A DNA stretch of 63,994 nucleotides, the filler included, from Basidioascus undulatus (taxonomy: Eukaryota), in the NCBI GenBank assembly GCA_000826855.1. It is 4 parts of 4 records of this genome, joined end to end, with 100 filler letters (N's around TTAATTAATTAA, not from the genome) between each part and the next. Parts side by side here need not be neighbours in the genome. Positions count along the whole stretch, not along the records: positions 1 to 31,103 come from JTLS01000106.1; 3 more parts are not named here. One strand, written 5' to 3'. Each line of letters starts with the position of its first letter. Position 1 is the stretch's first letter. The position numbers were made by a program, and so were the translations under genes. The notes beneath the pieces were generated by a model that was not told the DNA's origin, searched no databases, and saw only the letters and a program-made list of their open reading frames with translations. Below, in pieces: positions 27,696 through 53,040 of this stretch.

Positions 27696-29113
27696 ATGGC
27701 CGTGTACGAAGCGACCACCTCCGCGCCCGTCAACATCGCAGTCATCAAGTGCGTCTTCCTCCCAGCTCCCACCCCCATTTCCGTCTTCCCCTCCCAGTTT
27801 GTTTAGCTCATCAAGTCGTCTCCTGCAGGTACTGGGGCAAGCGAGATGTCCCTTTGAACCTCCCGACCAACTCGTCCCTCTCCGTCACGCTCTCGCAGGA
27901 CCACCTGCGCAGCACGACCAGCGCGCGCGCCGCCCCGACCGAGGACGGCAAGGACCGCCTCTGGCTCAACGGCGAGGAGGTCGAGATCAAGGGCAGGATG
28001 GCGGACGTCATTCGCGAGCTCAGGGCTCTGAAGGGGGACGCTGAGGTAAGTCTGGGCGACGGCAAGGCGGAGCGATGGGGAGGCAGGTGGGGAAGATGGG
28101 CTTAGGAAGACGCAGAGCTGGCTGGAGCTCGGGGGACGGCCCATCTTGTGCTTGTGCATAGTGAGGGAGTGCATTGTCAGGCATGCTGACGTTTAACCCC
28201 CCAGGTCGCCCGCCTCCCCCTGCACATCGTCTCTTACAACAACTTCCCCACCGCCGCGGGCCTGGCTTCTTCCGCCTCTGGCTTCGCCGCGCTCGTCTAC
28301 ACGCTCGCGACGCTCTATGCGCTCCCGCTCTCCCCCTCCGCGCTGTCCGCGATCGCGCGGCGCGGATCCGGCTCCGCGTGCCGGTCCCTCTTCGGCGGGT
28401 TCGTCGCGTGGGAGATGGGGTCCGCCGCGGACGGGAAGGACTCGCTCGCGGTCGAGGTTGCGCCGCGGAGCCACTGGCCCGAGATGCAGGCGCTCATCTG
28501 CGTCGTCTCCGCCGCGAAGAAGGGCACGCCCTCCACCGCCGGCATGCAGGCCACCGTCGCGACCTCCCCGCTCCTCGCGCACCGCGTCGCGCACGTCGTC
28601 CCCCAGCGTATGGCCGACATGGAGGCGGCGATCAAGGCGCGGGACTTTGACTCGTTCGCGAAGATAACCATGGCGGACTCGAACCAGTTCCACGCGGTGT
28701 GCCTCGACACGGCCCCGCCCATCTTCTACCTCTCCGACGTCTCCCGCGCGCTCATCGCCCTCGTCAATGCGTACAACGACGCGTCCGTCGCCCAGGGCGG
28801 GGGGTACAAGGCCGCCTACACGTTCGACGCCGGCCCGAACGCGGTCATCTACGCCGAGAAGAAGCACATCCCCGAGATCCTCGCCCTCGTCCAGGCAGTC
28901 TTCCCGCCCTCGGAGGAGTTCACCAACCCCTTCGGCGTGGAGAGCGTCCCCTTGCCGGAAGGTGTGGATCTCGAGAAGCTCGGGAAGGGCCGCTGGGAGA
29001 AGGGCGCCGTGTCGAGGCTCATCCACACCGAGGTCGGCGACGGCCCGCGGGTACTGGCCAAGGAGGAGAGCTTGTTGAACGAGCGGGGCCTGCCCAAGAC
29101 GCTTAACCAATAG
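27696..29113 (+). CDS. MVD1: Diphosphomevalonate decarboxylase
   Basis: ATTSAPVNIAVIKYWGKRD, LPTNSSLSVTL, NNFPTAAGLASSASGFAAL, ARRGSGSACRSLFGGF, MADSNQFHAVCLDTAPPIFY, AYTFDAGPNAV. Confidence 0.97.
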
Positions 29114-29801
29114 TTGCGGGTGTACGGGCGAGGAGACGGCGGGTTTCGGTTGACAGTCGTGTGAGCAGATTTGGGTATACCACGAACGCGCTGTGCATTA
29201 TCTCGTCCTGCCTGCGTTTGACTTCCCCGTTGATGGTCGACCGTTCGAGAACTTGCAAGCTGTGCTATGGAAGTCCCTCGCTCGTTCCAGACTTTGACTA
29301 GTTTTCGTCAGTCAGTCAGCGCGGCTCCCGACTTCCCGACTGCGACTCGCTATTTCACGTGGACGGCAGATCCTCCCTCTGCCCTGCATCCCAGCCCGTT
29401 GGCTTGCGCACCTCTTATTCATGAAATAATTCCACATGCAGATGCATCTATTTCCTGGAGCTGAAGAGGAGCTCAAGGATGCTGGTCGGTGCTCATGCAG
29501 CGCCTTTTCTGAATCTTTCTCTCACAGCCGCACAGTGCCGATGTGGCGGATGCTGCGCGTTGCGGATCGTGTTTCGCTGAATAGCCTCAAAATTTCAAAC
29601 TAGAATTGCAGGGAAGCAAATTGTTATGGGAGCAGAGAATGGTGAAGGCGGTCAGCCGGTAGACAGTATGTCGAAAGCGGGCGGCAGGCGAGCGGATGCG
29701 GCTTACTTCCGACTTTCATATTCGTTGCCCTGACCGCCCTCCTCGCCTGCGCATACACCCCAAAAGCTTTACAAAAACCTTTTTAAATCCTCTATTCCCC
29801 G

Positions 29802-31001
29802 ATGTCTGAGACTCACCTCATCCACGTCTCGAGTATCGGCGTCGTTCACGCTCCAGCCGCGGCGTCCACCGACACCGCGTCCACCGCTCAGCAGTCCACG
29901 TCCGCTCCCCCTTCGGCCCTCAAAAGCGTCGGTCACCTCATCCAGAAGGAAGATCCGTCTGCTCTCCCTGACCTTGTTGGCTTGCCTGCCGGCTTCCGGT
30001 TCAAGTCCAAGAACCTCACGCCTGCCGAGTGTTCCGTGCTGGAGACGTTCTTCAGGGCGCACGGGCCGGGGACGAAGAAGCAGAGGAAGGCGCTCGCGGA
30101 AGGTAGGCTCTCCTGTCACTCTCTCTTTTCCAAGGCTTCAGCTCAAAAAAAGAGGATCCATAGAGGAGGGGATCAACTCGGTCGCGCTGGGTCGATGGTT
30201 CGCCGCTCGGCAGCGGTTCGAGGAGAGCCAGCGCTCCCCTTCGCCGCCCGCCTCGCCCAAAGTCAACGTCGAGCAGCCGAGCGCGCACACGAATCAGTCG
30301 ATCCACGCCACATTCAAACATCCCCTGCCTCCCCATCCGGCCGCTGCGCTCGGAGGACCGTCCAGCTCGCATGCCTCGCGCAGCGCAGCCGTCGCGTCGA
30401 CGTCGACCGAACAGGGCACCGCCGCCGACTTCGCAGGGCCCATCCCCGCCAGCGCGATGGAGAGGATTCCCGCAAAGGAGCTGGTCAAGGCACTCAGGTG
30501 CATTGCTGCGGCGGGGAAGCTGGCGATCTTGCCGCAAGGTGCGTGTGGGCGTTTGTCGACGGAGATGACAGCGCGCAGGCTTTCTCATCTTCCATCGCAG
30601 TCCCTCCGCCTCCCGCTCAGCCTCAGCCTCAGCCCCAGCACCCCTTCAACGAGTACCACCCCCAGAGCTTCCAGCCCTCTCATGACCCGCTCCAGCACCA
30701 GCCGCCGGGCACCTCGCAGTCACACGCTGCCGACGCAGCGTACGCTGCATCGCTCCCTCTTCAACCGACCGTATTCCACCCACTAGCGCTTCCTTCCGCC
30801 CTGTCAGGTGAGAACCTTTCCCTTCCGCTCCCCACACATGAACAGTGGACTGAAGACCCCCGCCTCACGCAGACTTTCTTGGCAAGCCCAGCGCTTCGAC
30901 CCAGCAGCCCGGCTGGCCGTAGTAGTGCGTGTCGCATGAACGTTTATCGCTTACGACTCGGTATTATTAAAGTCCGTCTTTTGCAAAATGAGTGTGTGTA
31001 G
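29802..31001 (+). CDS. Divergent homeodomain-like protein (3' end uncertain)
   Basis: After removing the intron at about 30103-30162: LTPAECSVLETFFRAHGPGTKKQRKALAEEEGINSVALGRWFAARQR. This has homeodomain spacing (L16, F20, R31, L34/A35, I40, W48, F49) and is followed by a P/Q-rich region. Confidence 0.6.
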   Translation: MSETHLIHVSSIGVVHAPAAASTDTASTAQQSTSAPPSALKSVGHLIQKEDPSALPDLVGLPAGFRFKSKNLTPAECSVLETFFRAHGPGTKKQRKALAEGRLSCHSLFSKASAQKKRIHRGGDQLGRAGSMVRRSAAVRGEPALPFAARLAQSQRRAAERAHESVDPRHIQTSPASPSGRCARRTVQLACLAQRSRRVDVDRTGHRRRLRRAHPRQRDGEDSRKGAGQGTQVHCCGGEAGDLAARCVWAFVDGDDSAQAFSSSIAVPPPPAQPQPQPQHPFNEYHPQSFQPSHDPLQHQPPGTSQSHAADAAYAASLPLQPTVFHPLALPSALSGENLSLPLPTHEQWTEDPRLTQTFLASPALRPSSPAGRSSACRMNVYRLRLGIIKVRLLQNECV

Positions 31002-31030
31002 AGTCTGCGTGTAGTGAGAAACAAAAAAAG

Positions 31031-31103
31031 TCGTAGTCAGATACTCTACCATTGAGCCAGCCGGCCGTGACCGACGCAGGGATCGAACCTGCAACCCCCT
31101 GAT
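31031..31103 (-). tRNA. Apparently circularly permuted tRNA-Arg(ACG): 3' half (nt 38-73) precedes 5' half (nt 1-37)
   Basis: The minus strand reads ATCAGG-GGGTT-GCAGGTTCGATCCCTGC-GTCGGTCA, then C, then GGCCGGC-TG-GCTCAATGGTAGAGT-A-TCTGA-CTACGA, then CTTTTTTT. The re-ordered halves give a complete cloverleaf. The element abuts a contig end. Confidence 0.65.
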
Positions 31104-31203
31104 NNNNNNNNNNNNNNNNNNNNNNNNNNNNNNNNNNNNNNNNNNNNTTAATTAATTAANNNNNNNNNNNNNNNNNNNNNNNNNNNNNNNNNNNNNNNNN
31201 NNN
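31104..31203. other. Artificial contig-joining linker
   Basis: N44-TTAATTAATTAA-N44, a six-frame stop spacer identical at three places in the window. Confidence 0.97.
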
Positions 31204-32260
31204 ATGGAGGTAGCGGGCAAGGGAGGGGTCCACCCGGGGAGGCGGTGAGTGGGCTGGGGAAGGAGGGCTAGCAGGGAACCGGTGACTGGATGTTGCGTGA
31301 CGATGCTTGCTTGCATGACATTATTGTTGTATTTCATCCTCACGGATTCGTGCTTGCCAAGTTGTCCGGGGTTTTTTTTTCGTTCTCACTCACAAGGGAA
31401 GAAGTCCACATATTCAGCTGGGAAGTCGTCAGCGGTATTGGGAGGTTCCGTGATGACCTGCCGCTGCAGGGACACCGGGCAATTGCGTTCCGCCCACTGC
31501 CATCAGCCTCCGCTCGCCTCCTTCCCATGGCCGACACCTCTATGACCAACACAGCAGTGGTACACTATCCACATGATATAACTCACCGAATGACTTTCAG
31601 ATAAGTTGAGGGGCTCGTCTGACCGGCCGCTGCGAGGCTACCGGACCCATGAGGCAACACTACGACGCAACTCGGGTATTTGGAGGACGGGTGCCTGTGG
31701 AAGGTGGTACTGCAGCCAGCCGATGGCTTACTCGGCTACCCATGAAGTACACTTGTTTTTGCGGAGCTAAATATCTATCACAAATAGCTGTACGGAAGTG
31801 ATAACGGGTCGCTGCGCCGAAGGAGGAGCAGTGCTCCCTCTCCAGGGGGCACTTGATACAGACATGGAAGTGCATCACAAACACCTCAGCAGATTGCCCC
31901 GTATACAGCTGCGTACATAAAAAAAAAGGTCTTTCCGCATCAGCGGGGCGGAGCGGACACAGTCTTCCAGGCCCCGTCCTCCTGAGTGCAGCCGTCTCTG
32001 TTCATGCGGGACCTTGCGCTTCTGCGGCTGCTTGGTCGCTCGTCATTCTAATAAAGATACCCAGGAACCCCACATATGGCTCTAGCTGAGTGCTGGGTAG
32101 AGGGGCAGCGGACGCAGTGATCCGAAGCCGAGTCCCACCGACTAGTCCCCCGATAAGCTGCACTTGCATTCCTTTAAAGACCACGCTATCGCCGTCAATT
32201 CGCTCTTGTATTCACACCCACATCACCACTTCTACACCTGCGCATTCATCCATAACAGCC

Positions 32261-32331
32261 ATGCCCGTCACTCTTGACCCTTCCAACGCCGACACTCGCA
32301 CTTTTAAGATCGCGGCTGTGCAGGCCGAGCC
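32261..32331 (+). pseudogene. Orphan first exon of a nitrilase-family gene
   Basis: MPVTLDPSNADTRTFKIAAVQAEP followed by a GTGAGT donor. No downstream nitrilase motifs (FPE, HRK, CWE) were recognised. Confidence 0.6.
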
Positions 32332-32425
32332 GTGAGTGGTCCATACTTTCTTCCTGCCGATACGTTGCCAGATGTTCTAAAGGTTATCATTCAAAGAAGA
32401 AATACTTTCTGAGGGGCTCTTTCCT

Positions 32426-34489
32426 GTGGACAGCATGCAATACTTTTTTCAACTCCCTCAGACTGCGACACCTCCCCAACTCCCTCAGCCGTTCTACCCG
32501 ACTATCCGATGGCGCAGGAGCAGCGCGAGCTCTCAGGTCCGCGGCACCTACCGGGGCCAGCTGGAGGGTCACCAGGAGCGCTTGAAAATAAAAGGGGTGG
32601 GAAGGGAAACAGGATCAGGAGCCTGGACGTGACAGACACTGATGCAGTCCGCCACCAGCCTGCCCGTCGCACCGTCTGAGCATCGTGCGTACCCTGCTTC
32701 GCTCTTCCCGACTTCCTCCTCTCTCTTTGATGACCGGGTATCACTAATTCTGGACCACGTCCTCCATGCCCAGCCTCAACCGCACATAGCAGCCCGCATC
32801 AAACCCACCTCACGCAACCCTCACTCGTCGTCGCGCCTCACAGGTCCCCCTTTGCTCAACGATCCTCCGGGAGCACGCCACTCTCATCCTGCTCCTCCAC
32901 CCATACCTTGATCCGCGCCACCGCACTCCCACTACCAGTCCGCAACCCAAACAGTCTGGATTGGCTCTCTCCCGGCACACGCGTCTCCCGCGCTCCTCGC
33001 CGCCGCCATCCGCGGCCACGGCTGCGAACCTGTCGGTAACCTCACGGCCATCAAGCGCACGCACTGGCCTTTGCGAGCTTTTCAAGCGGCGAGGCAGCCG
33101 AGACCGCTGCGGAGCGGCTCGCGGAGCTAAGTTCATGGGGAGGAAAACTCAACGTGCGGTTGAAGAGCAGGGCAAGGTCTTCGGCAGTGTTCAGGATGCA
33201 GCCAACCACTGTATGGGCATTTACTACAGCGTATCAGCAAGCGTGTTCTGAATTAAGCGGGAACGTCTTTCAGGGAGAGTCCAGTTCATCAACTACGAGT
33301 GGGCCGGGACCAGAAGAAGCGACCGTGGACTTGACGCACCAGGGCACCGGCATGCCTATCCGGTACTTCATACTGAAAGCCTTGAGTTGAATTAGTCCAT
33401 CTCATTGTCTTATTTTTCCAATAATTACATGTAGCCGGCCGCCTGTACCTGTTTCAGGTCGATATGGACGCCCCGATCGAGAGCGGTGTGTGGTCTACGC
33501 AACGGCACAACGTGGCTGCCCTCAACGCGGCTTTCGACTCGTCCGAGCTCGTCCTTCTCCTCATGTCTCCCAACAAGCAAAGGGGCTTCTACGGCTTGGC
33601 GGTAGGTTTTTTGGAGGCTACTCTATTCACTTCCCTCCAATTCACCCAAAGGCTGACGCCCAAGTCCGCCACAAAAAATGGCGGCTCGAATATCTCTGTT
33701 CTACGCCCTCATCTACGCTGACTTCTCACACGCAGACATCAGCCGACTCCCTCGAGCATCGTTCCGCGCCGACTTTGCGCATCCGCACCTCTCCACTGGC
33801 GCCGAGCGCCGCGCTTCCGCGCCGCACTGGACACTCCACAATCCACCCTCGCAATTCGTCTCATGCACCCAAATGGGCGATCATCGCTCAGCGAGCCTTC
33901 CAGTCGTCCCGAGGAGCGAGCCGCGCCACGTTCAGCCTCTGACGGCTGCAGACCCGACGGCTGGGACACCGTCGTCCGCACAGCAGCCCCGGGAACGCGA
34001 CCCCAGGACTCGGGCCTGCCCCGGGATGAGGCACCCAAAGCTGGCGTCCAGCCCGCGGATGATCAGGCCATGTCGCAAGTTGAGGAGAGCCAGGAGGAGG
34101 ACGAAGGACGTGCGGTGCTGGGACGCACAGTCTCTGCTCCCGCTAACCTCGAGCCTACGCGCGAAGGCGATGAGGAAGAGGATGGTGCATCTTCTGAGCT
34201 CTCTTGGGGTAACGTTTCCGCGCCCAGTGCTTTCTCCTCCTCCGAGATTCTCCGCATCCGCGGTACTTCGTCGTCGCACCTTCCCCCTCCGATCATCTCA
34301 TCTCGGCAGCCTGGCCTGTCGCCTGCCCTTCCATCTCCCCCAGAGCTCGAACCCTCTCCTACCCTTGAACGAGCTCGAGACAGGCGTAGGGGAGCGCATT
34401 GTGCGCGAGTTCCGTTTGGAAGGCGACACAGGCGAGAGGGACAGCGGGGGAAGGGGAGGAGAGAAGATGTAGGGGTGTTCATGATGTGA
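32426..34489 (+). pseudogene. Degenerate YTH-domain RNA-binding protein gene
   Basis: PIRYFILKALS*, IESGVWSTQRHNVAALNAAFDSSELVLLLMSPNKQRGFYGLA, a long low-complexity insert, then LPFH...ELETGVGERIV. Contains stops, frameshifts and a shortened C-terminal YTH half. The 5' boundary is uncertain. Confidence 0.68.
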
Positions 34490-35485
34490 TGAGAGGCGTT
34501 TAGCCTGCCCAATTCAAGTTTTTTCCTTGGAGTGAGGCGCTTGGTATGAGGCGGCTGGTCCATATTCCACGATTGATGTCGTGGGGAACACCGGGCAACT
34601 GCAGCACTGCATGCATTCTGCGCAGTAGTTCCGCTCGACGCCCAACGCCTGTTTGCTTTTGACACCGTCTGTCCCATCCTGGAGAGTTCTGACATAATTC
34701 AAGAGCATCAAGTAATCAACTATCTGCTGCGTCAGCGCGTGCCGGTCCGTAGAAGAAGCCTTGCAAAAGGGAAGGCGAGCCTGTTCCGAGCGTGTTGGAT
34801 CTCGTGCCTTGTGGTTCTTGTGAAATGCTTTTATGTAATCTTGGACAGATGTATGAGCGCCGACAAGAAAAAGGCGGACTAGTCTACTCGCGATGCAGCC
34901 GCAACTGAAGCAGCTGCAAGTCCAGCATCACAAGTAACGCGTGTTGGCTTCGACAGTCCTGGTATAGCACACGATTTTTTCTTGTAATGACTCTTGCTTT
35001 CCTTTAATAAACCTCCGCTAATGACCCAGATGAAATGGGCAATCCCGGCTCAAACGACCGTCATTCCGCGGCACACCAAAGCGAACGGCTCTTCCACAGC
35101 TAAGAAAAACTGAAAAGGTGCCTGAGTTTCTCAACGTTGTGTTGTTCTCCCGAGCCATACTCCGTTACCGAGCCATACTCCGTTACAGACCCCCTCACTA
35201 GTGTTCATGGCTGATGGGCCTGTCCGTACAATGAGCTGCTGTACAAGTGACAATCCGAAGCGCACTTGACGTCTGCTGACATCTCAGGGGATAACCTCAG
35301 AAATCCAAATCTCGCAGGTAGATGAATGAATTAAGTTGTAAAAGGAGTGTGATCGCTTATATTAGGTTTTTCGAATTATTCTATGGGTGCTTGTGCTTAA
35401 ACAATCGCTTCAGATGCTGCACTTCCCGTGAGCGCGGCTACCGACAAGAAAACCAGTCTTCCCCGCTTCACCAACGGAAAGAAGT

Positions 35486-36108
35486 TCAAGTCCGACCCTC
35501 TCGGCCCTCCCGGACTTGCCGCCCAAAGTCCTCCGGCTCGGGGATGGGGAACACCACGCTTGGAGAGTCATGGGGGAATGCGTGCTGAGGACTGATCGGC
35601 GTGGGCGGGGCCGAGGCTACCGACCAGACGGACGGGGCGTACACCGACTGAAAACTACCGGGGAGTGTCGTGAAGCTCCGCTGAAGGGGTGATGGGAGGA
35701 GGTCGGGTGCGGAGACTGTTTCGTGAGGGAGCTGAGAAGGGGTTGGATGTCTGCATGACCGGATCGCCTGGACCTCAGCAACGAGGGGAGGACTTCCGCA
35801 GGAGCGAGAAAGGATGGAACTTACCCGGGTGAGCCCCCCCATTCCCGTGCTCGTACAGTATCTATCTCCAGACCTGGGTTCGAGCGGCGCAACACCGCCC
35901 GTTCAATTCGGGGTGGCGTGGTGCGGTCCTGCTGTGCCTGCAGCTCGACGCCAGGAGGGTTCGACCGCTCGCGGGGTCGTTGTGCGCGGTGGGGAAGACG
36001 GGTTGGGCGATAGTAGTGGATGTAAACGAGAGCGACTATTATACCAGAGTATACGCCTAGTATGACGGCTAGACAAACAGATGCGATCACGGCGGGTGAG
36101 GGGGACAT
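35486..36108 (-). CDS. Small hypothetical single-pass membrane protein
   Basis: Hydrophobic N-terminus (AVIASVCLAVILGVYSGIIVALVYI), an intron near 35773-35825, and an S/P-rich tail. Confidence 0.55.
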
Positions 36109-37611
36109 GGTGAAGACCTGGAGACTGGCGCTGCCGTGCTGGTACGCCGCACGAAGGCGAATGCTAGGGGAGTAGAGGGGACATGCCTGCTGCCTTCTTG
36201 CCTTAAAGACTTTGGCGTGGGACAGGATCAGCGAAGGTGTCTTGGGACGCGTCGCGGGCTAGTTTGTTTTCTTGAGGCGCAGTGAATGGCACTCGCCGTG
36301 TCGGGGCTTGGAAGCCACGCAGATCGCTGCAAATGAAGTGTCTCTCTGAGAGGTCAAAGACCACGGAATTAATATATAAAGTATTTCAGGGACAGTGCTC
36401 CTTCGAAGTGGCGTCAACGCCGTCCTATACCCGAACCAGGACGGCTCAGCATTCGAGGCGTGCATGCGGAGTGGGAGGAACGGAAGTCGAAGAACGGCAA
36501 GAGTTGTATACTGCACTTGAGGTAGCCATGTGTTCGTGGAGCGTTGCGCAAGAGACTGAAACGCACCCGATACTCTCGTCCCGGCCATTGAAATATGGCC
36601 GTGGATCTGCAAGCAGGTTTGACACAGGCGAGTGAATATCGCCACCGGAACAGCAGCTGGGACAGCCAATCTCCGATGATTAACTTTCCCTTTCTGTGAG
36701 TGTACTCCTCGCTTGCTCAGCATGGTGTATATTGCAAGTTGTGGGGAAGACCGAAGACAGGCCCTCATATTCAAGAAGGTGCCTCTTGACACAGGCCGGC
36801 TCCAGCACCGCCATGAGTCTCCACCGGCTTCAGTATGGCACTCAACTGAGAAAGGGCTTTGCATCGCGACTTCGCTGCCTCGCTGACCTCTATCCACAAC
36901 CAAGTCGCAAGTGGAGATATCGGGGAATTCAACTCGAACCTAATTTTGCACAGCCATTTCATTTTCAGAACTCTCCAAGTATACTGGAGACTCTACTTAG
37001 CGTCTCTGCCAGCGTGTCCGCCGCCTCGAACGCACATGAGCGGGATCATCGTTGCAAAATGACAACTCTCGCGTGCAAGCCAAACCGCTGGGTCCGGCCC
37101 GCCGCTCTCTTTCGTGAGCGGGGTGATCTACCTCTTTCCACTTGCCTCAAGCGGTCTGCTGGAATAGCGATGCGTTTTCTCAGCAATTAGCTGTAAACCA
37201 TAGCCTAGAAACGGCAGAAAGCTGACACTCGTACAAAACAGGCAAATTGCCGCTGAATGCGTTCGTGTTGTCTGAACACTTCGACGCATGCAAAGGGGCC
37301 ACGAGGCTGTACCATAGATGACTGTTACGGAAAGCTCACATGGAACCGCTGCTTTTGACTTTCGGTTTGCAGTCCCCGTTGATGCAGATCAATGTTAATC
37401 TCTCCGACCGGCCCGCCGTTCCAGCCGTGGCGTAGTAATTTCTCCAGCATTTATCGCAGTTCAAGCTCTACCCTGGTGCCACGTTCTGCAACTCATACGT
37501 CTTAATTCTGTCCCCCATCTTTCATCCAAATTATGAGAACTCACCGCGCTGCACCACCGAGTCAGCCCGCAGTCGGGGGCAGCCATGAATCTTTTCGCAG
37601 TCCAATGGCGG

Positions 37612-38515
37612 ATGTCGATGTTCCGGACACCCAGATCGTATATGAGGCCGGTGCTGAAGGGTACGTTTATCTCTTTTGCGATGAATATCCCGTACACATG
37701 GGGAATTGATACTCTCTATCCCATCTCAATCCAGCCTTCTCACCGCTGCCGGCGTCGTGCTTGCCGGTCTGCGTCCTCCGGCAGCTTCCAATCGCTTATC
37801 CAGAAGCCTTTCCTCCTCGAACGTTCCACCTCTTCACCTTCGAGAGCCGGAACGCCTCGAAACTGCACCTCTCATTCTCCTTGCTCCTCGTTCGCCCACG
37901 TCATTGCCGGAATCGTCCTCCCCGCCTTCCACCATCGTCTCCGATCCTCCCGCGCCGCGCAAAGCTCGCACTCGGCCGCTGCCTCGTCCTCCTCCAGGCC
38001 GAGTCGACACAGAGGTTGGGATGTGGGGATACGCTGCTCCGCCTCCTCCACCTGCCGGTCCGCATGCCCAGCCGAAGCCGCCTCGCAGTGAGAGGTTCAA
38101 GGCGGAGGAAGCTGAGCGACGGGTGCGCGAGCTGGTGCGGGAGGAGCTTGAAAAGCTCGCGCTGCTCCCGGGACCGGAGTCGAATGTTCGCAGCTCACAA
38201 CAACATCCCACCTCGTCCTCGTTCTCGGCGGGCAGGGCGGCGAGCTCGAGACACAGGCCATCTACAGCCGACGCACCCTCCACCTGGCGTTCTCTCACAC
38301 CACCTCCGACACCGCCCACCCCGAAGAGCGCCCGCAGGCACTCTCTGGTCCCTATACCTACTAGTCCGTCGCGGACCACCAAGCGACCGCCCACACCGCC
38401 GTCTGATGAAGTGTCTTTCGAGGAGGGAGAGTGGCAGGACGAGCCGGCGGCGGAGAAGAAGGGTCGGGGCTGGGGGAGGTGGTTGAAGAAGGTTTTTGGG
38501 CAAGGGCGTAGTTGA
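37612..38515 (+). CDS. Hypothetical proline/serine-rich protein
   Basis: Short first exon with a GTACGT donor at about 37661, then a long GC-rich open frame ending GWGRWLKKVFGQGRS*. Confidence 0.45.
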
Positions 38516-39493
38516 TAACCTTTTTCCTCCCTTCTTTGGGATTTTAAGATGTATCACAAGCAGGCTTGATAAGGCATACTCGAATGTGATCTTTCCCAAA
38601 TTCGGACCTACGTGAGCGACGAAAGCCAGTAAACAGTTTCACTGTCTTCAAGTCAAACTTGAGGTCGAGAGGAATTACCCCATGTAATGACATGATACTT
38701 CTTTATTTTCCATCAGTCTCCCCGACCTGCAGCGCAGAGCGGCGTCTTGGCACTCTGCAGCGAACACCTGACAGTCACAGGGGTCGCAAACTTGCATCGC
38801 TGCTTCTGATTTAATCCCATAGCTAATATATCTTTGGAACAGTGAGGAATCTTCAAATACCTTATCTTCATAAAATACTCACCGTAGGAGACCTCGTGTA
38901 CAACCGTACACGACGAAGACTGGATTGAAGCCGAAAGCAACGCTCCAAGCCACTGCTGGAAATCACGGCGCGCAAACCGACTTACGACCAGTGCATCTGT
39001 AACGTAAAAGTCTGCCAGACGTGAACTCGCGTGATAAAAGAAATAAGGATATGAAAGATCCACACATCTTACCGTCTTGTGCGCTGTGTGAGCCTGTAGC
39101 GAATGGAGGACCCCGACGTTAGCACACGCAGCTGCAACATGTTTCCCTTGAACCGACTCCGTACTCTCACGTGTCTTAGAATAACCTGATTTAGGAGATC
39201 TCAGGTGCTGCAAACCCCGCAGAGCGAGTCCCGTCCGAAGAGGCGTTGATCATCACCCAACATCACCGCCCCCCAACGTCAACATTGCACACGACCGGCG
39301 CCGTCGAAACATGAGCATTTAAGGTACGTATACAGCATTCAAACCAACAATAGGAACAGAGAAAGAGAACGTAGACGAAATAGCGCCCTAACGGAGAACA
39401 AAAGACCGAGAGAAGAATACAAGGCGCGCCGGCAGCACGGACACACATGGCAAGGGCAATAGACGAAGAGTAAGGATGAGATGAGGTGGGGGG

Positions 39494-42154
39494 TCAGCGC
39501 TGGTGGTCGTCGTACGCCTCGGGCAGCTGATCGGGGATGACAGCCGTGAACCCATCCTCGGGCTCCATCTCGTAGCTGCCCTTTGACGCGCCGCCCTGGT
39601 GCGAGACCGAGTTCTTCGGGCTGGTCGGGGCGGCTGCCAACGTCCAATAACCAACCAGCACTCAGTAAGTACATCATCCGCACGAGCTTGCGACGAGAAA
39701 GAAGGAAGAGGGAGGGAGGGGGAAGAGGAGAGCGACGCACGCATCCCACGCATGAGTACCTTTGCGTCTTGCGCGCTGAGCTGGTCCGGGTTGGCGCGCG
39801 CTGTGGCGCGTTGGACGCGCGCACGGCTCGTCGGGCTCGGCGGGCGCGGGGGCGGGTACATCGCTTGCGCCTGGTTGAGCGGGATCGTGGGGATGTTGCA
39901 GGAGGAGACGACGGGGGCTGGTCGTTCCGGACCACGGCGCGTCAGCCTCACGCCGTTCGGAGTCGACGAGGGAAAAGGAAGAAGGTAAGGGAGAGAGGAA
40001 ACACCGACGCACCGGCATAGTCCCGCTGAATCGTAGCCTTCATGAGCTCCTTCATCCAGTCGCGGATGATGAGCTTGTCCTCGGACGAGAAGTAGTGCGC
40101 CCTCTCATTGTCGTGCACGAGCTTGAATCCGTACCGGCCCGGGTTCGTGTTCTCGTCCGCAACGACCTTGTACCCGACGAGGTTGATCATGCCCTTGAGC
40201 TTCGTCTCCTGCATTCCCCCACACGTCCACCATCATCAGCATCCTCCTTCTTCCCCCCCTCTCATCCCTCCCCTCCACCGCCCGAACGCACGTTCTCATT
40301 CCGCATGTAGAAGAGCTGTGGACCCTTAAGGACAAAGAAGCGCATCTTCCAGCTCGTGTACCTCTCCCCCTTCTTCTTCATCCACCCCTGATAATCAGGC
40401 ACCCCAATCTTCTGCAGCGCGGTGCCCACGCCATCGTCGAACTGGCTCGAGTCGATGAGCGTCGAGCGCCGGCTGCCCCCGCCGTAGCCGTGCAGGTTAC
40501 TCGCGACCGAGATCGAGTCAACGAGGCTGGACCCGTTCGGGGCGGACGGCCGCCGGTGCGTTGAGGGCGCTGCAGAGGACGCGGCGCTGCTCTCGCTCAG
40601 CCCGCGCGTGGACCGCTTGGGACCGAGGTGAAGGCGCGAGGAGATGCTGTTCTTTTTGGTGTTGTTCGGGTCGGGGGACGAGTCCATCAGGTCGCTCGCG
40701 CCGCTGATCACCCATCCAGATGTCAGCTGGCCATCCTACAAACCGAGGGAAGGGGAAAAAAAAGAAACAGGCAGGAGAGAGAGAAAGGGGGAGATCGGGG
40801 AAAGGGGAAGATAGGCAGAGAGGATTAGGAAGAGACGCACGAGTACCGCGGCGCCGGCTTCCGCCCCTTGCTCCCAAACCCGCCCGTAAAGAAGCTGGCC
40901 GCGCTCTCCCGTGCACCGCCCTTGGGGTCGCTCGCGCGCTTCTTGGACGACGACTTGGCGCTCGCAGACGAGGGCGTGACGGGCGAGGACGCGTGCACGG
41001 AGGTGGAGGACCGGTTCGCGCTGCTTGGGGCTGCGAGGTGCGCTGCACCGGCCTGGTGCAACCCGGTTTCCCGTCAGTAAATAATTACCCAGTGGGGAGT
41101 GGGATGGATGGGGACGGGAATGGGGATAGGGTTGGGAGAGGAAACGCACCTCCTCCGGCTCCGGCTCCTCCGGCACCGACTCGCCCAGCGTATTCGTCCG
41201 ACGGTGCCCGTTCGTCTGGTCCGCCGTCCCAAGCACGAGCGACACGGGCCTCTGCCTCCTCGGGCTCTGGTAATCCACATTTTGCTGCCCTCCCAACACT
41301 TCATCAGCCTCCCTCCTCTCCTTCCCAACAAACACCGAAAACGCACCTCCGCCGCACTCCCCTCGGTCGCTGGTGCCTCCCGCAGCCCCAAACCCTGGAG
41401 CGCTGCGCGCTCCTGCTCGTCCACCCCTGCCCCGCTGGGAGAGCGCACGACCGGGCTCCCCCCGCCGAGCTCCCCCCCACTGGGCACGCTCTCCGGGCTG
41501 AACGGGATCGCGCCCCCTGGTGCGACGACGCCGGGCACGGGGACGCTCGCGCGCGGGTCGTACGCGTACTGGTGCCCCTGTGGGTGCTGCCAGGTGGCGC
41601 TGGCGGGCGAGAGGGGCGTGTAGGGCGTCGTGGACGTCGAGGAGACGCTGGGGGCGCGCTGGAATGCGGCTCCGGCCGGCGGAGGAGGGGGAGGGAAGAG
41701 CTCCCGAATCGCGTGCGCAATCTTGACGCGCTTGCCGAAGGCTATGACGTCGATTTCTTTGAGGGTTGTGGCATCTAGTTCGGACAGGACATCACCGGAG
41801 ATCTCGTGCTCTGCCGGCGCAAACAGGGCGAGTCAGTTCTGCATTCCAACAGCCCGAAAGAGGGAGGGGGGGAAGGGGAAAGCGGTGGCGGTAGGGAGGG
41901 GAGGGGAATGCGAACGCACCCTCGAACTTCCCCAACACGCCCTCATCGAACCCCTTGCTTCGTCCCCACTCCACGACCTGCTCGACACTCCAGTTCCGCG
42001 CGTCCGGGACTCCCGCGGGGGGCGCGGACGCCGAGCCGGCGGTGCGCTGGGAGAGGGAGGAGGGCGAGGGCGTGCGGAGGGGGAGCGTCTGCTGTGGCTG
42101 CGGGATTGGGACTGGGACTGGGGCGGCGGAAGGGGAGGGGGCGCGCTGGGTCTG
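39494..42154 (-). CDS. Boi1/Boi2/Pob1-like polarity protein (SAM + PH); 5' part lost in the gap
   Basis: SAM (EQVVEWGRSKGFD, EHEISGDVLSELDATTLKEIDVIAFGKRVKIAHAIREL), PH (PDYQGWMKKKGERYTSWKMRFFVLKG, KGMINLVGYKV, RDWMKELMKATIQRD), and PVVSSCNIPTIPLNQAQAM. Confidence 0.88.
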
Positions 42155-42254
42155 NNNNNNNNNNNNNNNNNNNNNNNNNNNNNNNNNNNNNNNNNNNNTT
42201 AATTAATTAANNNNNNNNNNNNNNNNNNNNNNNNNNNNNNNNNNNNNNNNNNNN
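42155..42254. other. Artificial contig-joining linker
   Basis: N44-TTAATTAATTAA-N44. Confidence 0.97.
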
Positions 42255-42386
42255 GGGGGGGGGTTGGGACGCCGTTTGAGCCCGCGTTTGAATGGATTCT
42301 CGGGCCGCAAACAACCTTCCTCACCTCCGAAATCCCCGACTGCTTCTTCTCGGTCCGCTGACGACTCCTCCCCGCCCGTTCCACAG

Positions 42387-42992
42387 AAGATCAAGGGCAT
42401 CCTGAACTCTGCGCGCGCCGAGCACACCTCGGCCGTCACCTCGCGCATCGACTCCGTCCAGCAGCTCAAGGACGTCACCTCCATCACCAAGGACCTCTTT
42501 GCGCTCTCCAAGGTCCGTCTCGCTTCCCTCATACTCATCATCCCCCTGTTCTTCTTCTCTTCCCTTTCTCCCTCTTCTGTTTTTTTTTGTTATTTCGCTG
42601 GCTGACGCTCGCTCGAACGCGCGCGCAACAGGAGACCGCCCAGGCCGAGGCGACCGCGTTCGAGCTCCGCCAGCGCGTGCAGCTCGCCGCGGAACTCAAG
42701 AGCGTGCTCGACTCGTGGGTCCGGTACGAGGCTCAGGTGCGCGAGTCCGAGCAGAAGCAGCTCGCCGCGCACGTCGTCGCTTCCGTCCAGAAGGCCATCC
42801 AGGACGACAAGTTCCAGAAGGACGTCCTCCTCAACGCCGTCGCTGAGGTTGAGCGTGCGTCGATCCCTTCCTCTTCCCCCTTCTCCCTGCCCTGCCTCTT
42901 CCCCCCTGTCTCCCGCCTCCTCCTCTTGCTAATTCAGACTGACGATGTTTGGTGCCTATGCAACAGAGCTCGTCAAGAACAAGGCGCTCTAA
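42387..42992 (+). CDS. ATP4: Mitochondrial ATP synthase subunit b (C-terminal exons; 5' part lost in the gap)
   Basis: KIKGILNSARAEHTSAVTSRID, ITKDLFALSKETAQAEATAFEL, ELKSVLDSWVRYEAQVRESEQKQLA, LVKNKAL*. Confidence 0.93.
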
Positions 42993-43494
42993 GCGTCCTC
43001 CGTTCTCGGCGGCATGTCGGCTTCGGAACCGGTGGAGCTGGGACGGAATGGAACTTAACGACTGGGTGATTTGGGCGGAACGAGTCGGGAAGGCGGCAAG
43101 GAAGGCAACGGAAGGCGGTGGTAGGAAGGGGACAAATTAGAAGTGCGTGCGGAGTCGCTTGCGCGGATCTTTGCTCTGGATGTGAAGTGATGCGCGGGCA
43201 CTTGGCTCGCTCGACCTGATGTTTCTTGCGTGTTGGAGTGTGGGCTGGATCGCGTTGGGACGTACTGACGGAGCATTCGCTTTCCGTCGTCGATTGGCTC
43301 GCTCGGATCCTCGACCGGCAAGCATCGGCCAAGCTTTTGGCAAAGCAGAACAAGCGTGTATAGGTATACAAGGCGTCGTGGTATATAACAAACAAGCAGC
43401 TGCACTGTGAAAGGAATATTAATATGGGGCATCATCACCGTTCGACGTTCGTCTCGTTTCGTCTCGTCTTCACACAGTTCATCGGTTCCGTTCA

Positions 43495-45096
43495 CTCGCC
43501 CGGGTGCTCATCTCTGTCGCCCTGCGTCGGAGCAGTGGACGGCGGCGCAATGAGCTGTTTCCTCTCGTCCCGTCAGCTTAACGTCGACTGTCACTCCCAA
43601 AGGATGGAAGCAGCAAACGCACCACCTTCCGTCCCGTACTGTTCTGCCTCGCAATAAGCGAAGCGAGCACGTCGGTCGACGAGTTCACGTGCAGAAGTAG
43701 GGGGTGCGGGCGCCGGAGGGGCGACAAAATGGCAGGCATGGTCCCTGTCGTAGGCATGGGGGAGGGCGTGCGCGATGCCGCAGGCGGAGGTGGCGCGACG
43801 GCCGCGCCGTAGTCCATGTCCGCCCCCGGGGCTGCGCGCAGGCGCTCGGAGAGCGGGACGCGAGGGGGCGCGGACGGTCTGAGCGGGATGTCGATGATCG
43901 TGTCGAGATTGTGGTTGTGGTGAGGGTGGGGTACGTAGGGGGCCGGGACGAAGTCGTCCATTGGCTCGAGGGCGGGGGTGGGGTATAGGGAGGGAGGGTG
44001 CGGTAGGGGGGCGTAGGTGCTTGGGTGGAGGTGGGAGTGCGAGGAGGAGGAGGTCTTTTAATTCGAGTGCCACTGCGAGTTCGAGTTCGAGTGCCGCGGG
44101 GTGGCATTGGAGGACGAGGGCGCCGCCCACGACCCGCTTCCCTAGAAGCCCCACATCCGCGCGAGCCACCCTTTCAAAACTGTCCGGCACCGCATTGTAG
44201 TACCACCCTCCGTCTTCCGCTCGGCGCCCTTCTCCCCCGGCCCAAGCAGAGGGGATCAGTCGTCCTCTACCTCGGACCCCCCGTCGGACGTCGCGCCCGA
44301 GCGGGAGCCGAGCGCCGCTGGCGGCGGCGGCGGAGGAAGAATGCGACCGCGAGGAGGATCGAGGCCGTGGTGAGGAGCACGGGGAGGAGGATCGTTTTGA
44401 GGGGGGAGGCCCGGGGGTGCGGATGAAAGGGTTGGTGAGGGGCTGGAAGTGCGGACTGGCGGAGAGGAGGTGGGGGGTGGGGTGGTTGTGTGGAATGAGG
44501 AGGAGGAGGAGAAGCGGCTGGATGAAGGGTGGGTGGAAGTGGTCTTGCTGGACGAGGACGAGGAAGTGGTGCTGGAAGGCAGGGCGAGCACATGGACTGC
44601 CCAGGCGTCGTCGCAGTGGCGCAGTGGCTGTCGAAATGGTGTCCTGCACGTATCGTTTCATTTTGAGCTTTTCTCTGAAAGGTCTTTGTGACATTAAAAT
44701 TGCGTGCAAAGTACTCACTTCAGGTGCCGGCAGTCAGTCGGCAATGCCACAGCAGGCCCTGCAGTCAGAAACCACGGTTGCACAGCAGCATAAAACTCGA
44801 CGACTCAAAATCCACACAGCCCTTCCACTTTCCTCACAGCGCTCACTCTGAGCCCATCGCGCCCACAGCATTGCGGGCAAAGTATCCGCTCCAAGGTCCT
44901 GTACATCCCGATACAGGACCGTAAACTCGTCTTCCGAGAGTTCGAAGCAACCCAGCAGGACAGGCGCAGTGCCGTCGCCGCGAGTGTGGGTAGCGTCGGC
45001 GCAGCCGTCTAGGATGGGCTGGACGAGGGAGAACAAGGAGGAGCAGGGCGGGTGTGGATTTGTAGGGGATAGTGGGGATGTGGCGGGCGGTGGCAT
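43495..45096 (-). CDS. Hypothetical Ser/Thr-rich single-pass membrane protein (frame breaks at homopolymers; boundaries uncertain)
   Basis: An S/T-rich stretch (SSTTSSSSSSKTTSTHPSSS), a TM segment (ILLPVLLTTASILLAVAFFL) with a basic stop-transfer (RRRRQRR), and a P-rich tail. Confidence 0.45.
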
Positions 45097-45331
45097 GGCT
45101 CTGCTGACTGGGAGGAAGGCAAGCAGGAAGGAAGGGGCACGAGGAGATAGCAGGCTAAGCTGTCGAGATGACGTCCCGTCGAGTCGTGCTCAGAACTGCA
45201 GCCACTTGGGAGTCGAAGAATCATGCGATTCGGTATGGAGTTACGGAGTTAGATAAATCTAGAGAAATACAAGAGGGCAGTAGGGGTTCAAAGTGTGCTA
45301 CAAGGGACAGCAGAGGGCCGCGCAGCCACCT

Positions 45332-47390
45332 TCACGCGCTGAAGCCTAACCCGGACCGTAGCGCGGTGAGAAGGCTAGAGTCGGCGGTATCGCCGGTGAT
45401 GGTCCAGCTTCCGACTCCCCCAATGCCACCGCGGGCAGCAGTTTGGGCCTTGGCATCTGCAACCCCCGCGAAGACGGTCAGCGTTGTACGCATCGCGAGC
45501 AAAACTGAGGGCACGCACAGATGCTATCCGTGTCGTCGTAGGCGAAGAAGGTCGAGCCGGTGTACATATAAGGCTGGAAAGCAGTAAAGTAAGCACAGGG
45601 AAAACGATAAAGGGAAGGCCGGATGGATAGGCTACTCACAGTCGAGCTGCAGCCGTCCCATTTCCGGGTCCAGCCAGGACCGGCTTCGTACTTCCCGGCC
45701 GAGTTCTTGACGAGCGCGCCAGACTCGACCGCAACGCGGAAGTCCTGTCAAAAAAATACCAAATTTTAAGTACCTCACTGACACCTCATCGTAAACGGTC
45801 CAGCCACCCACGATCTGTCCAGGACCGCCCGGGATGGTTACCGCCTGCCGGGGGTTCAGCGTCGTGGCGCTGCTCGTCGAGAGGTAGCTGCCCTTCCACT
45901 CGCGTTGATCGGCTTGTCGCTCTACCTAGAAGGATCAAGTGTCTTAACTAACCCATAGAACGGAACCCCAAGCGTGAGGTGGCTTCGCGGCATTCCCGCC
46001 GCTGCCCACTGCTCAATGGCGCTCTCGACGTTCGCAGTTGGGTTGGCAGCCTTGCCGCAGCCGTCGCGAAGCGGGGCGTTTGCGCCGGGGTTGGCGGAGA
46101 CGCCGTTGATGTCGTACCTTCCACAAGCTTTCAGCCTCAGACAGAATACATCGGGGGTTCGGAGAGCGAGTACTCACGCCATCATGAACACATAGTCCAG
46201 CACCTTCGCAAACTCCTTCACGTCCGTAAGCGGCTGGCCGTTAGGTCCCACCCCTGCGAAGAAAGGGCATGTTCAGTGAGACCAGATAGCTCTTACCGGG
46301 TGGAGTCAGGGAAGGGGAACACACACGGCCAGACCTGCGTGGCGGAGGACAGCTTGATATCGGGGATCTGGTCCTTGATCATCTGCAGCAGGAGGAGGAA
46401 GTTGGCCGTGTCCTCGGGGCGGTACTTGTTGCCCGAGCCAGGAAGACCGGGATCTGGAGGGAAACTATTTCAACTACCTCCGCATCTCGACATTATCCGA
46501 GAGGGACTCACACTCCCAATCACTGTGCATTCCCATGCCCTGTCAGCTTCTGCAGCCAGGAGTTCTAGGGGGTTGCTTTCACTCACATGTCGAAGCCGGC
46601 AACGCCATAGTCCCGGCGGATCTGGCCGAGCTCATTCGCGAGAGACTGCCGGCCCTTCTTGGTGGTGCAGAGGTCCGAGAACGCGCTGAGCAGCATCTCC
46701 AAATCAGCATAACGTCTTACGGAAGGATTTATGAAGAGAAGGCGTTGTGACGCACCCAGAACCACCCCAGCCGCCGACACTGAGCCAGACCTCCTTTCCG
46801 CCCGGAGCAGCGCCGACAAGGTCTGTGGCAATGAAGTATCAACGTTGTTCTGGAGGTGGCGCGGGATTGCGGAAGGACCAGACTCACTTCGCAGGATAGC
46901 GGCGTTGAAGTCCAGATGGCCATTTTGATCCGGGATCGCGAATGCGAGCTTGACGGCTTTGGACGAAGGTAAATGGGATAGCTGAGCACATCTTACACTT
47001 CCAAGGTGGAAAGCAGATAAGCGCACCATCAAGTCCCCACCAGGGCAAAGTGTTCGGAGGATGATCGGCAGCCAACCACTCGCTGATATATAGAAACACA
47101 AGTGAGCAAGTCATCAAGGATACAACTGAGAGACTTCCCACTCACGGATAGTAAGTCACGACCTTAGTCTGGTTGATGGGAGCGAAGACCGTCTGGCCGC
47201 CCTGCGTGCCGAAGCTGTCCTCCCCGAAGTCGGGCTGGACAACGAGCGGCTTGTAATCGGCCGGCGGGAACTGGGTGACCCGCTCGTTCTGTAGTTGGGG
47301 CTTTGTGTGCGGGAGGCGAGGAGTGACGGCGACGGCGATCGCTGCGTTTGCAGCCAGCAAGACGCCGGCGAATGCGGTCAGAAGACGCAT
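45332..47390 (-). CDS. Secreted GH18 chitinase
   Basis: Signal peptide MRLLTAFAGVLLAANAAIA, LAFAIPD, spliced GFDIDWEYPG (DxDxE), DTANFLLLL, LDYVFMM(A)YDING, ANAPLRDGC, LTLGVPF, YDDTDS, GGVGSWTITGD. Confidence 0.88.
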
Positions 47391-48355
47391 TTTGAGGGTA
47401 GTGAGGTCGTTAGAGGCGTGAAGTTGATCGTTGCGGTCTCAGTAGTCTTGCGTGGGCATAGAGAGGATGGTCAGAGGTAAGTTGAACAGTCATTTATGAG
47501 GCTGCAGATCCACTTGGATGCAAGCTTACAGCGCACGGACAGGGGTCCAGGGCTGAAAGCCGAGGCAGGGCGCACTTGGCTGCACGCATGATCGACGCTC
47601 TTCTGGAAGATTGTGGCGTCAAAAAGTAGAGAAATGACGAGGTGGACAGAGTTCGAGCGTGCACGATAGACATGAGGAGCAATAGGCACTTGGTGGATAG
47701 CCGGAAACTCTGTCGGGAAACGCTGTAGTTGCGATCGAGAAGATCGAAGACCGTTACCGACGACCATCTGAGTCCTTTCGTATCTTTCATACGGCGAAGA
47801 AGCCTTACGTTGCTGCAACAAGCCCTGGATGCTTTCGAAGGAGACTGATCAAGATGAGGAACCGATTGGAGGATGTTGATCTTGCGGTGCAGCGTTTGGC
47901 AGTGTCAACTAGCTTGACACAACGAATAGGGGCTTCCGCGAGATACACCTGTAGCCTAAGCAGTATTAAGGGTCGATGACCAGCTGCGTATGCTCTGCGG
48001 CATAAACGCTTTGCAGGTGCTCTTGGCGGTAATATAAACCAAGCAACTCAGCATCATGGTGCACATTGGGATAGATCTTGCGGCTTGTCCGCAGCCAGAC
48101 CGAGCAAATGTATCTATCCGGAAGTCTGCACACCAGTGCTTTCGGAGTAGTCTGATAGGTGAAGATGACTGATAGATTACGATGGGTGAACTAGATTTAA
48201 AAATCTGTTGAAAGTATGCCCTCACCATAGGCTGCCTGTAGTCGTAACGGCACGCCCGCAAACCGCCACAGACAGTCGGATCCCAAGAAACCTCTAGATC
48301 GCAGTGCGCCCGTAATAACTCGGGCCGTTTTTGTTGGAAAAGAAGGCGGGGAACA

Positions 48356-52327: not shown

Positions 52328-53040
52328 ATGAGCACCAACACCTCATCCACCACCCTCTCCCTCGGCCGGCACGGCTATCTGTCCGGCCTCTCCTTCTTGG
52401 AAAAAGTCCATCGCTACCTGAACGTCCCGTACGGTCTCCCTCCGACAGGCGCATACCGGTGGCGGCGCCCTCGCGCGCTCCCCGAGGACTTCACCTACGG
52501 CGAGCGAGACTGCACGCAGTTTGGCAAAATCTGCCCACAGCCCGCGCATAAGGTAGCCAAGCTCAATGGGGGAATGACGAACGACGAGGGCGTGTTCAAT
52601 GAGGACTGCCTGGTGCCCAACATTTGGAAGCCCGACGGCCGGTCTTCATCTGGCTTCACGGTGCGTCCACAGTCACCCAGGCCGAAGCTTTTCGCTGAAT
52701 AAATCCAAATCCGCAAGCGGCTTCCTTCAAATTGGAAACCTTTTACATGATGCCCTTGCTGACCCCACCGAGCTTGTGAACGAGCTGCAGGTCGTTGTGG
52801 TCGCTGTCGGTTACCGCCTGTCTGTGCTCGTCTTCCCCGCCAGAGAGCCGCTGCGCGAGGAAGCGACCGGTGACGCGAGCGAGACCGAGCACGGCGCGTT
52901 CGGAAACTACGGGCTCTGGGACCAGCGGCTGGCGATCGCAACCGTTGCCTATCCTCTACGAATACTCGTTCTCCTACGGAGAAGAGCGAAGAAAAAGCAG
53001 GAGAGGGGGAGTGAGACAATAGGCATGGTTAGGACTGGGC
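52328..53040 (+). pseudogene. Type-B carboxylesterase, truncated and frameshifted relic
   Basis: YLNVPYGLPPTGAYRWRRP, CPQP, NEDCL, GFLQIG, VVVAVGYRL, GNYGLWDQRLAI. The HGG oxyanion motif is not recognisable, and similarity ends before the G-x-S-A-G nucleophile. Confidence 0.75.

Follow-up and report, generated by a model that had tools for sequence, protein, structure and literature searches.

Permuted tRNA Genes and Similar Systems

Circularly permuted tRNA genes have been regarded either as survivors from early tRNA evolution or as peculiarities that go with streamlined genomes. As far as is known, those of the algae are single copies, whereas the fungal unit described here is found in tens of dispersed copies. 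The parts of the review literature available to us name such genes only from Cyanidioschyzon merolae, prasinophyte green algae, the Bigelowiella nucleomorph, and Thermofilum pendens (PMC3978253, PMC4033280, PMC13578239, PMC4090602). A search of titles and the beginnings of abstracts in the full-text literature, with subscription journals and supplements outside its coverage, returned no permuted tRNA gene from a fungus, and this counts against reading the fungal unit as one. According to excerpts from one of the reviews, the permuted genes of green algae are mostly broken between positions 37 and 38; the known permuted tRNA genes carry a T-stretch behind the 5' half and have TATA-like promoters upstream, and their intervening sequences range from 1 to 74 nt (PMC3978253). 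In the same partial sources, the ordinary processing enzymes are thought to be sufficient for maturing permuted tRNAs (PMC3978253, PMC4090602).

The tRNA-Arg(ACG) locus analysed here resembles the type II (37/38) genes of prasinophytes, the Bigelowiella nucleomorph, and C. merolae in the position of the break (Soma, 2007; Maruyama, 2010; both as covered in part of PMC3978253). As far as that review describes them, type II genes also share with it a short intervening sequence at the acceptor end, a T-stretch after the 5' half and reversed A and B boxes, but their hosts are algae or a nucleomorph instead of a fungus, and the intervening sequences of C. merolae are 7-74 nt long compared to one nucleotide here (PMC3978253). 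The tRNA-Tyr(GUA) gene of T. pendens likewise has an intervening sequence of a single nucleotide, and no shorter one is on record (Chan, Cozen and Lowe, 2011, via the available parts of PMC3978253). That gene is, however, archaeal, it is broken at 59/60, its CCA is encoded, and its acceptor loop is several bases longer (PMC3978253, same parts). In the fungal unit only A73 and one base bridge the acceptor ends. The differences from the known permuted cases are the host, the copy number, and a one-base spacer without an encoded CCA.

Other tRNA-like elements share some of these traits. Helenus TRIMs inflate the tRNA counts in rusts and are present in some Agaricomycetes, and like other tRNA-derived repeats of basidiomycetes they resemble the fungal unit in forming many dispersed tRNA-like copies with Pol III boxes, which may be taken for genuine tRNA genes (PMC10886601, in part). 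In the portion of that paper seen, the tRNA part of Helenus is in normal order inside LTRs, and the element has a primer-binding site, a polypurine tract, and target duplications of 5 bp (PMC10886601). The fungal unit differs from Helenus in its permuted order, in its length of about 80 nt and in that the similarity between copies ends at the T-run. While the head of a tRNA-derived SINE or a Helenus TRIM has the A box before the B box and is accompanied by a body and a tail or by an LTR, the order found here is B then A.

In the dimeric tRNA genes of yeast, for instance tRNA-Arg/tRNA-Asp of Saccharomyces cerevisiae, the 3' end of one tRNA is followed by a very short spacer and by the next tRNA's 5' end, and the two are co-transcribed. 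The fungal locus is similar in that a tRNA 3' end is followed, after a tiny spacer, by a tRNA 5' end, but here the second member stops at position 37 and meets a terminator. A dimeric gene consists of two complete genes, and downstream of the 5' half there is no second 3' half.

The unit thus matches a type II permuted gene in the order of its halves, its cloverleaf and its terminator, and that it is a functional permuted gene is plausible but unproven. Our preferred reading, to which we assign a probability of about 0.4, is that the locus is one of many circularly permuted tRNA-Arg(ACG) genes that together form a dispersed Pol III family, and that their transcripts would be matured by the splicing endonuclease, Trl1, and RNase P.

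Organization of the Locus

The window, i.e., the whole stretch of 63,994 nt that was analysed, is composed of four separate contigs (1-31103, 31204-42154, 42255-53203, and 53304-63994) connected by three identical joiners (44 N + TTAATTAATTAA + 44 N) at 31104-31203, 42155-42254, and 53204-53303. Since the contigs are artificially joined, neighbourhood across the joiners is meaningless. The tRNA-Arg(ACG) locus is found at the very end of the first contig, which stops at 31103, and the 100-nt strandless joiner at 31104-31203 takes the place of the true leader. The first-pass annotation had stated that the contig ends at tRNA position 38 and that the leader is invisible, and this is correct.

All parts of the locus are read from the minus strand. 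The 3' half (positions 38-73, 36 nt) occupies 31068-31103 and contains A38, the 3' strand of the anticodon stem, the variable loop, the T arm with the loop TTCGATC, the 3' strand of the acceptor stem and A73, with the B box at 31080-31089. A single C at 31067 constitutes the intervening sequence between A73 and G1. The 5' half (positions 1-37, 36 nt) follows at 31031-31066 and contains the acceptor strand GGCCGGC, the D arm, the anticodon stem and loop with ACG, and A37, with the A box at 31049-31059. The first trailer base after A37 is a C (31030), and it is followed by a run of seven T's (31023-31029) that resembles a Pol III terminator; at other loci, runs of other lengths are found in the same place. 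This terminator-like run is located behind the 5' half, and there is none inside the intervening sequence. The permuted order proposed in the first-pass annotation (3' half at 31103-31068, one C at 31067, and 5' half at 31066-31031) is therefore confirmed, as are a break exactly at 37/38, which follows from the layout at 31103/31031, and a B box that precedes the A box on the gene strand. The proposed T-run behind the 5' half was recovered not only here (31029-31023), but also at at least 10 other loci.

With up to three mismatches allowed, either half has a single occurrence in the window, and none of 100 shuffles gave a match. A blastn-short search for a second copy in the 63,994-nt window returned only the locus itself and a 17-nt D-arm match to tRNA-Trp. 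Neither this search nor those with the separate halves detected further Arg(ACG) sequence elsewhere in the window, and no second 3' half was found downstream of the 5' half. A scan for bacterial-type promoters and terminators, which is not relevant to this host, gave nothing. An open sense frame of 50 aa runs through the element (P0121); when it was compared with ORFs on other copies no candidate of near length was found, and among longer ORFs none scored. A reading of the element as an LTR primer-binding site was discarded: of the three bases that a CCA end needs, just one stands before the complement of the tRNA 3' end, and read-through of a tRNA primer would not leave the halves in this order.

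Folding of the Unit

The halves were put in tRNA order by slicing the window sequence in a script, and ARAGORN then identified the rejoined sequence as a tRNA-Arg(acg) of 72 nt with all four arms, in agreement with the earlier claim that the halves pair into a full cloverleaf. The acceptor stem has seven pairs, two of which are G-U, and it is accompanied by D, anticodon, and T arms and the usual T-loop. ARAGORN reported nothing for the unit in genome order, neither in linear nor in circular mode, and both ARAGORN and Rfam missed the locus when applied to the whole window. A family of such units in a fungus would illustrate that standard tRNA finders can overlook a whole isoacceptor family.

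In the predicted fold of the genome-order unit (-22.1 kcal/mol) the G1-C72 pair is opened, leaving six pairs and a 4-nt loop. The stability corresponds to a z of 0.31, and 121 of 200 shuffles fold equally well; tRNAs that fold no better than shuffles are usual, and this decides nothing. On this model the one-base spacer would prevent the 7-bp acceptor stem from closing and force the terminal G1-C72 pair open. A cut by RNase P within such a tight acceptor loop is unproven, and the modelled geometry would thus count against the unit being a permuted gene.

A Dispersed Family

Sequence from 29600-31103 is contained in three public runs (X1, X2, and X3), and k=31 contigs from these were placed on 30300-31103. 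All sampled words are contained in X1 and X2, which may be the assembly's own source; these two DNA runs are therefore independent of the assembler, but not of the sample. One single-copy contig in each of them spans 30300-31050, with a depth of 14.5 in X1 and 48.1 in X2, and the A37-C-T7 junction and its flank lie within this contig in both runs. The A73-C-G1 junction is found at far greater depth. In X1 it is present in a contig at 31045-31097 (exact, depth 298) and in one at 31042-31097 (one difference, depth 175), and the corresponding X2 contigs cover 31056-31097 (exact, depth 650) and 31042-31097 (one difference, depth 473). The first-pass annotation had suggested that reads be used to check for a misassembly at this junction, and contigs from the reads of both X1 and X2 support it. 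Relative to the single-copy depth there would be roughly 10-20 copies of the exact variant and 10-12 of the one-difference variant, depth being a rough guide.

At least 10 contigs in X1 and at least 11 in X2 represent other loci with the 5' half, the next base and part of a T-run. They diverge into different flanks at 31021-31026, and in X2 once also at 31014, so each copy has its own T-run length and its own flank, and the similarity among the copies ends right after the T-run. The permuted unit with its terminator is a dispersed family with tens of loci, of which most copies are identical and a few are decayed. What the first-pass annotation described as a single odd gene is one copy of this family, which it had not foreseen. 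Its suggestion of a retro-inserted circularised tRNA fails as a single insertion, given the tens of loci, and survives only as a possible origin of the family.

At several of the other loci a second run of 6-8 T's is found within about 30 nt of the first, as would be the case for back-up Pol III terminators; these strings are consensuses of 1-3 contigs with an agreement of 0.58-1.0. An exact 27-mer spanning the junction had no match among metagenome contigs, a collection poor in fungi, and this says little. The same applies to a degenerate junction pattern with a spacer of 0-20 nt, which gave no matches in metagenome contigs, prokaryote genomes, and viral contigs, where fungi are few.

Variation among the Copies

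Of the 44 contigs placed from X1, 29 are at least 99% alike, 11 are 95-99% alike and four are 90-95% alike; for the 49 contigs from X2 the corresponding numbers are 31, 13, and 5. One decayed-looking locus matches all of 31021-31103 (83 nt) with six differences and is seen for three letters beyond A38. Another matches 31042-31098 with five differences; upstream it has a flank of its own, unique in sequence, that joins the 3' half at around position 43. Such decayed and truncated copies, and the 15 of 44 X1 contigs that are less than 99% alike, count against the permuted-gene reading.

The distribution of the differences could be followed to some extent in the contig graph. Two contigs that both start at 31097 have to differ within their first 31 letters, and the simplest placing of this difference is the spacer at 31067. 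By the logic of de Bruijn graphs, one multi-copy variant would then have a C as its spacer and the other a different base, with identical halves on either side. In X3 one contig stops at A37 (31031) and two start 30 letters earlier, one exact and one with a single difference, and the base after A37 (31030) therefore differs between these two loci. Where the graph allows differences between multi-copy variants or between loci to be placed, they appear to lie on letters outside the tRNA, namely the spacer (31067), the trailer base (31030), and the length of the T-run. Variants inside the 5' half were placed at 31044, 31038, and 31032 (in contigs starting at 31074, 31068, and 31062, respectively), and each belongs to a single locus. 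Multi-copy differences outside the halves and single-locus differences inside them form the pattern that would be expected from selection on the halves, but the same picture might result if two master copies had multiplied in a very recent burst.

The cDNA-Like Run

One X3 contig skips a 65-nt GT..AG stretch (30805-30869, plus strand) within a plus-strand gene, and on account of this one skip X3 seems to behave as cDNA; no run is on record as RNA. The cover of the flank by X3 is patchy, and there are parts without cover. The gene that contains this 65-nt intron ends approximately 80 nt from the tRNA unit. The locus stands downstream of a gene at 29802-31001.

Six X3 contigs were placed, two of which cover the flanking gene. 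A 45-nt contig with a depth of 61 (31031-31075) contains the end of the 3' half, the C and the whole 5' half, and it stops exactly at A37. Two longer contigs, of 874 nt (depth 26) and 695 nt (depth 8), start in the 5' half, cross a T-run and end in flanks that differ between the two, which points either to leaky termination or to another polymerase. The remaining contig, of 93 nt and with a depth of 33, is placed on 31046-31103 and is the only one from X3 that is not colinear with the locus. Its last 30 letters are the same as its first 30, so that it describes a 63-nt cycle: the 3' half and the C lead into 21 letters from the start of the 5' half, and TTGAG (plus strand, CTCAA) then brings the path back to A38. 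Five letters of the D arm are exactly complementary to this TTGAG. The cycle is devoid of the anticodon arm, and is not the 73-nt circle that the maturation pathway predicts, a point against the permuted-gene reading.

The 63-nt cycle could stem from one or two loci with a tandem duplication, from a circular RNA of 63 nt, or from an abundant 63-nt RNA that reverse transcriptase copied into concatemers. The 298-deep X1 contig is unbranched where the cycle departs, between letters 21 and 22 of the 5' half. The truncated form consequently has no retained branch in X1, although graph cleaning could remove a rare one. No joint like that of the cycle is listed for X1 or X2, contig absences not being evidence in either direction. 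In the same way, the joint between 31031 and 31103 (37-38) is in none of the six X3 contigs, but contigs can only demonstrate that a sequence is present, and ordinary libraries lose small RNAs. The second spacer variant, abundant in the DNA runs, is absent among the X3 contigs; this argues against a simple carry-over of DNA, with the reservation that contig absences are weak evidence. Taking X3 as cDNA, its junction contigs indicate that the family is probably transcribed.

The Sequence in Front of A38

The only view of the sequence ahead of A38 is provided by one X3 contig, where TTGAG on the gene strand, and not the end of the 5' half, precedes it. At most five contigs per DNA run continue past 31103 (6 and 7 contigs overrun the ends, in each case counting one flank contig on the opposite side). 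Over 31083-31103 the depths add up to 1864 in X1 and 4733 in X2, and the listed contigs explain approximately 370 and 900 of this. As the few contigs that pass A38 must be deep, this rough accounting suggests that the upstream sequence is shared by many copies and exists in two or more versions. The halt of the assembler right at A38 would be explained as well. The shared sequence could be a conserved leader, it could belong to conventional genes with A37 before A38, or it could be part of a longer repeat unit. A pair between G(-3) and C32 is known to help the eukaryotic 3' splice cut. If the TTGAG of the one X3 contig is the end of a leader, it would allow a G(-3):C32 pair together with a three-pair helix between the last leader and the first trailer bases.

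A Possible Maturation Pathway

As a permuted gene the unit would consist of a short leader, the 3' half (38-73), one spacer base, the 5' half (1-37), one trailer base and the T-run. In the transcript, the halves would fold into a normal tRNA body that has a tight loop at the acceptor end and is open in the anticodon loop. The fungal splicing endonuclease, measuring the distance from the body, would cut before 38 and after 37, and the tRNA ligase Trl1 would join A37 to A38 and thereby create a 73-nt circle. RNase P would have to open this circle 5' of G1. The spacer might then be kept as nucleotide 74 or be trimmed, the CCA would be completed and A34 would be converted to inosine.

To our knowledge 37/38 is the only site used by the eukaryotic splicing endonuclease, and a clean rejoined cloverleaf with a break exactly at this site argues for the permuted-gene reading. 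The parts of a review that deal with the eukaryotic endonuclease state that it finds its sites by distance and that pairing between the intron and the anticodon loop is no prerequisite (PMC4090602). With sites set by the distance from the body, cuts before 38 and after 37 would be expected whatever the connectivity of the halves. It is also stated there that 92% of the tRNA genes of the basidiomycete Cryptococcus neoformans are spliced (PMC4090602), and the splicing machinery is thus heavily used in at least one species of the phylum. The putative internal promoter counts on the opposite side, as TFIIIC would meet the A and B boxes in the wrong order. Conventional Arg(ACG) genes may be present elsewhere in the genome, and this also counts against the permuted-gene reading. 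A further claim is that permuted genes with a one-base intervening sequence, some tens in number, are the source of all or most of the major arginine tRNA, tRNA-Arg(ICG), and that it would serve translation in this form; we regard this as possible, but doubtful.

Alternative Explanations

The copies might instead be a dispersed repeat derived from tRNA-Arg, either SINE-like or a retro-pseudogene, that stems from one permuted or circularised template and is transcribed at some loci while no working tRNA is made. Tens of loci with unique flanks would be expected of a repeat, the spread in divergence and the copy that starts around position 43 resemble decaying, 5'-truncated elements, and the 874- and 695-nt cDNA-like contigs read from the 5' half through the T-run into the flanks. 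The upstream context, which on rough accounting is apparently common to many copies, would fit a longer unit, and in the available parts of a study on Helenus, tRNA-like repeats are described as common in Basidiomycota (PMC10886601). The halves are, however, identical in most copies while the spacer, the trailer base and the T-run vary, which would fit selection better than a neutral burst, and the exact 37/38 break and the intact cloverleaf would have to be inherited by luck. We know of no SINE or TRIM that has a permuted tRNA part, or that ends in a bare T-run without a body or a tail. The ordinary enzymes should moreover process any unit that is transcribed and folds, even if it started as a repeat. 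On balance we consider a repeat without a working tRNA a rather unlikely explanation, though one to be taken seriously. More improbable is a conventional tRNA-Arg(ACG) gene located beyond the contig end, with the duplicated 5' half being a mere 38-nt trailer in front of the terminator. It is the least exotic possibility and would need no unusual promoter or processing, as the upstream A and B boxes would have their usual order and transcription would stop at T7; an assembler might well halt nearby if the 5' half is repeated internally, and the depth is higher over the 5' than over the 3' half. The latter could also be explained by overlapping short contigs. In the cyclic X3 contig that bears the junction, it is TTGAG and not the end of a 5' half that stands before A38, and one locus seen in the DNA runs X1 and X2 has unique sequence directly upstream of its 3' half. 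An unselected trailer is not expected to be identical up to A37 in most copies, and with a complete gene upstream the contig should presumably have run partly into the conserved 5' half instead of stopping at A38.

A short head-to-tail array of tRNA-Arg-derived units would also place a 3' half in front of a 5' half. The locus would then be the edge of such an array, with its last unit cut in the anticodon loop and its permuted look resulting from an out-of-register reading. The 63-nt cycle of X3 is what a tandem repeat would give, its first word has the end of the 3' half and the C before the truncated 5' part, and the junction copies number about 30 by depth compared to 12-14 distinct flanks in a rough count. 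Against this, the 298-deep X1 contig has no branch at the point where the cycle departs, with the proviso that cleaning could hide one or two loci, and a joint of the 63-nt type is listed for neither X1 nor X2. An array also leaves unexplained why the last unit should end exactly at A37, with a terminator of its own, at many loci, and it can be given only a small probability. An assembly error or a chimeric read at the contig end might be suspected from the location of the locus at the very end of a contig and from the fact that tRNA genes are repeats that break assemblies. Both junctions are, however, present in k=31 contigs from the reads of two DNA runs, A73-C-G1 at many times the single-copy depth and A37-C-T7 within the 4.5-kb single-copy contig (30300-31050), and we consider an artefact extremely improbable.

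If the family consists of functional permuted genes, these would be the first permuted tRNA genes in fungi or in any opisthokont, and the first case of a permuted tRNA gene spread as a multigene family. It would also imply that, in vivo, such transcripts can be matured by the ordinary fungal endonuclease, the Trl1 ligase and RNase P. With a multi-copy family in a fungus, it would be clear that ordinary, ruler-type tRNA splicing is no obstacle to the origin and spread of the permuted layout in a lineage, and there would be a system for studying the permuted-tRNA pathway. Even if no tRNA is produced, a permuted tRNA-derived Pol III repeat would represent a new kind of fungal repeat.

The Host and Its Conventional tRNA Genes

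The first contig also encodes the last exon of a diphosphomevalonate decarboxylase of the mevalonate pathway (28415-29113, plus strand). A search with this exon gave 3293 proteins at E <= 1e-20 among 4183 candidates; the length filter of this search may hide some groups. In the best 120 of the 3293 relatives, all 34 rows that name an organism belong to genera that we take to be Basidiomycota, which agrees with the fungal host assumed in the first-pass annotation. The identity to the best relatives among these 120 is 60-67%, with a maximum of 67%. Judged from this exon, the host appears to be a basidiomycete, with no close named relative among the matches listed.

The fourth contig contains three conventional, intron-less tRNA genes on the plus strand within 5.4 kb. 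ARAGORN identified them as tRNA-Trp (CCA) at 55614-55685, tRNA-Glu (CTC) at 56561-56632, and tRNA-Val (AAC) at 60928-61000, and of these Rfam, at the gathering score, reported only tRNA-Trp and tRNA-Val. Each is followed by a run of four to five T's that starts 1-4 bases past its 3' end, and the ordinary tRNA genes of this genome thus look ordinary.
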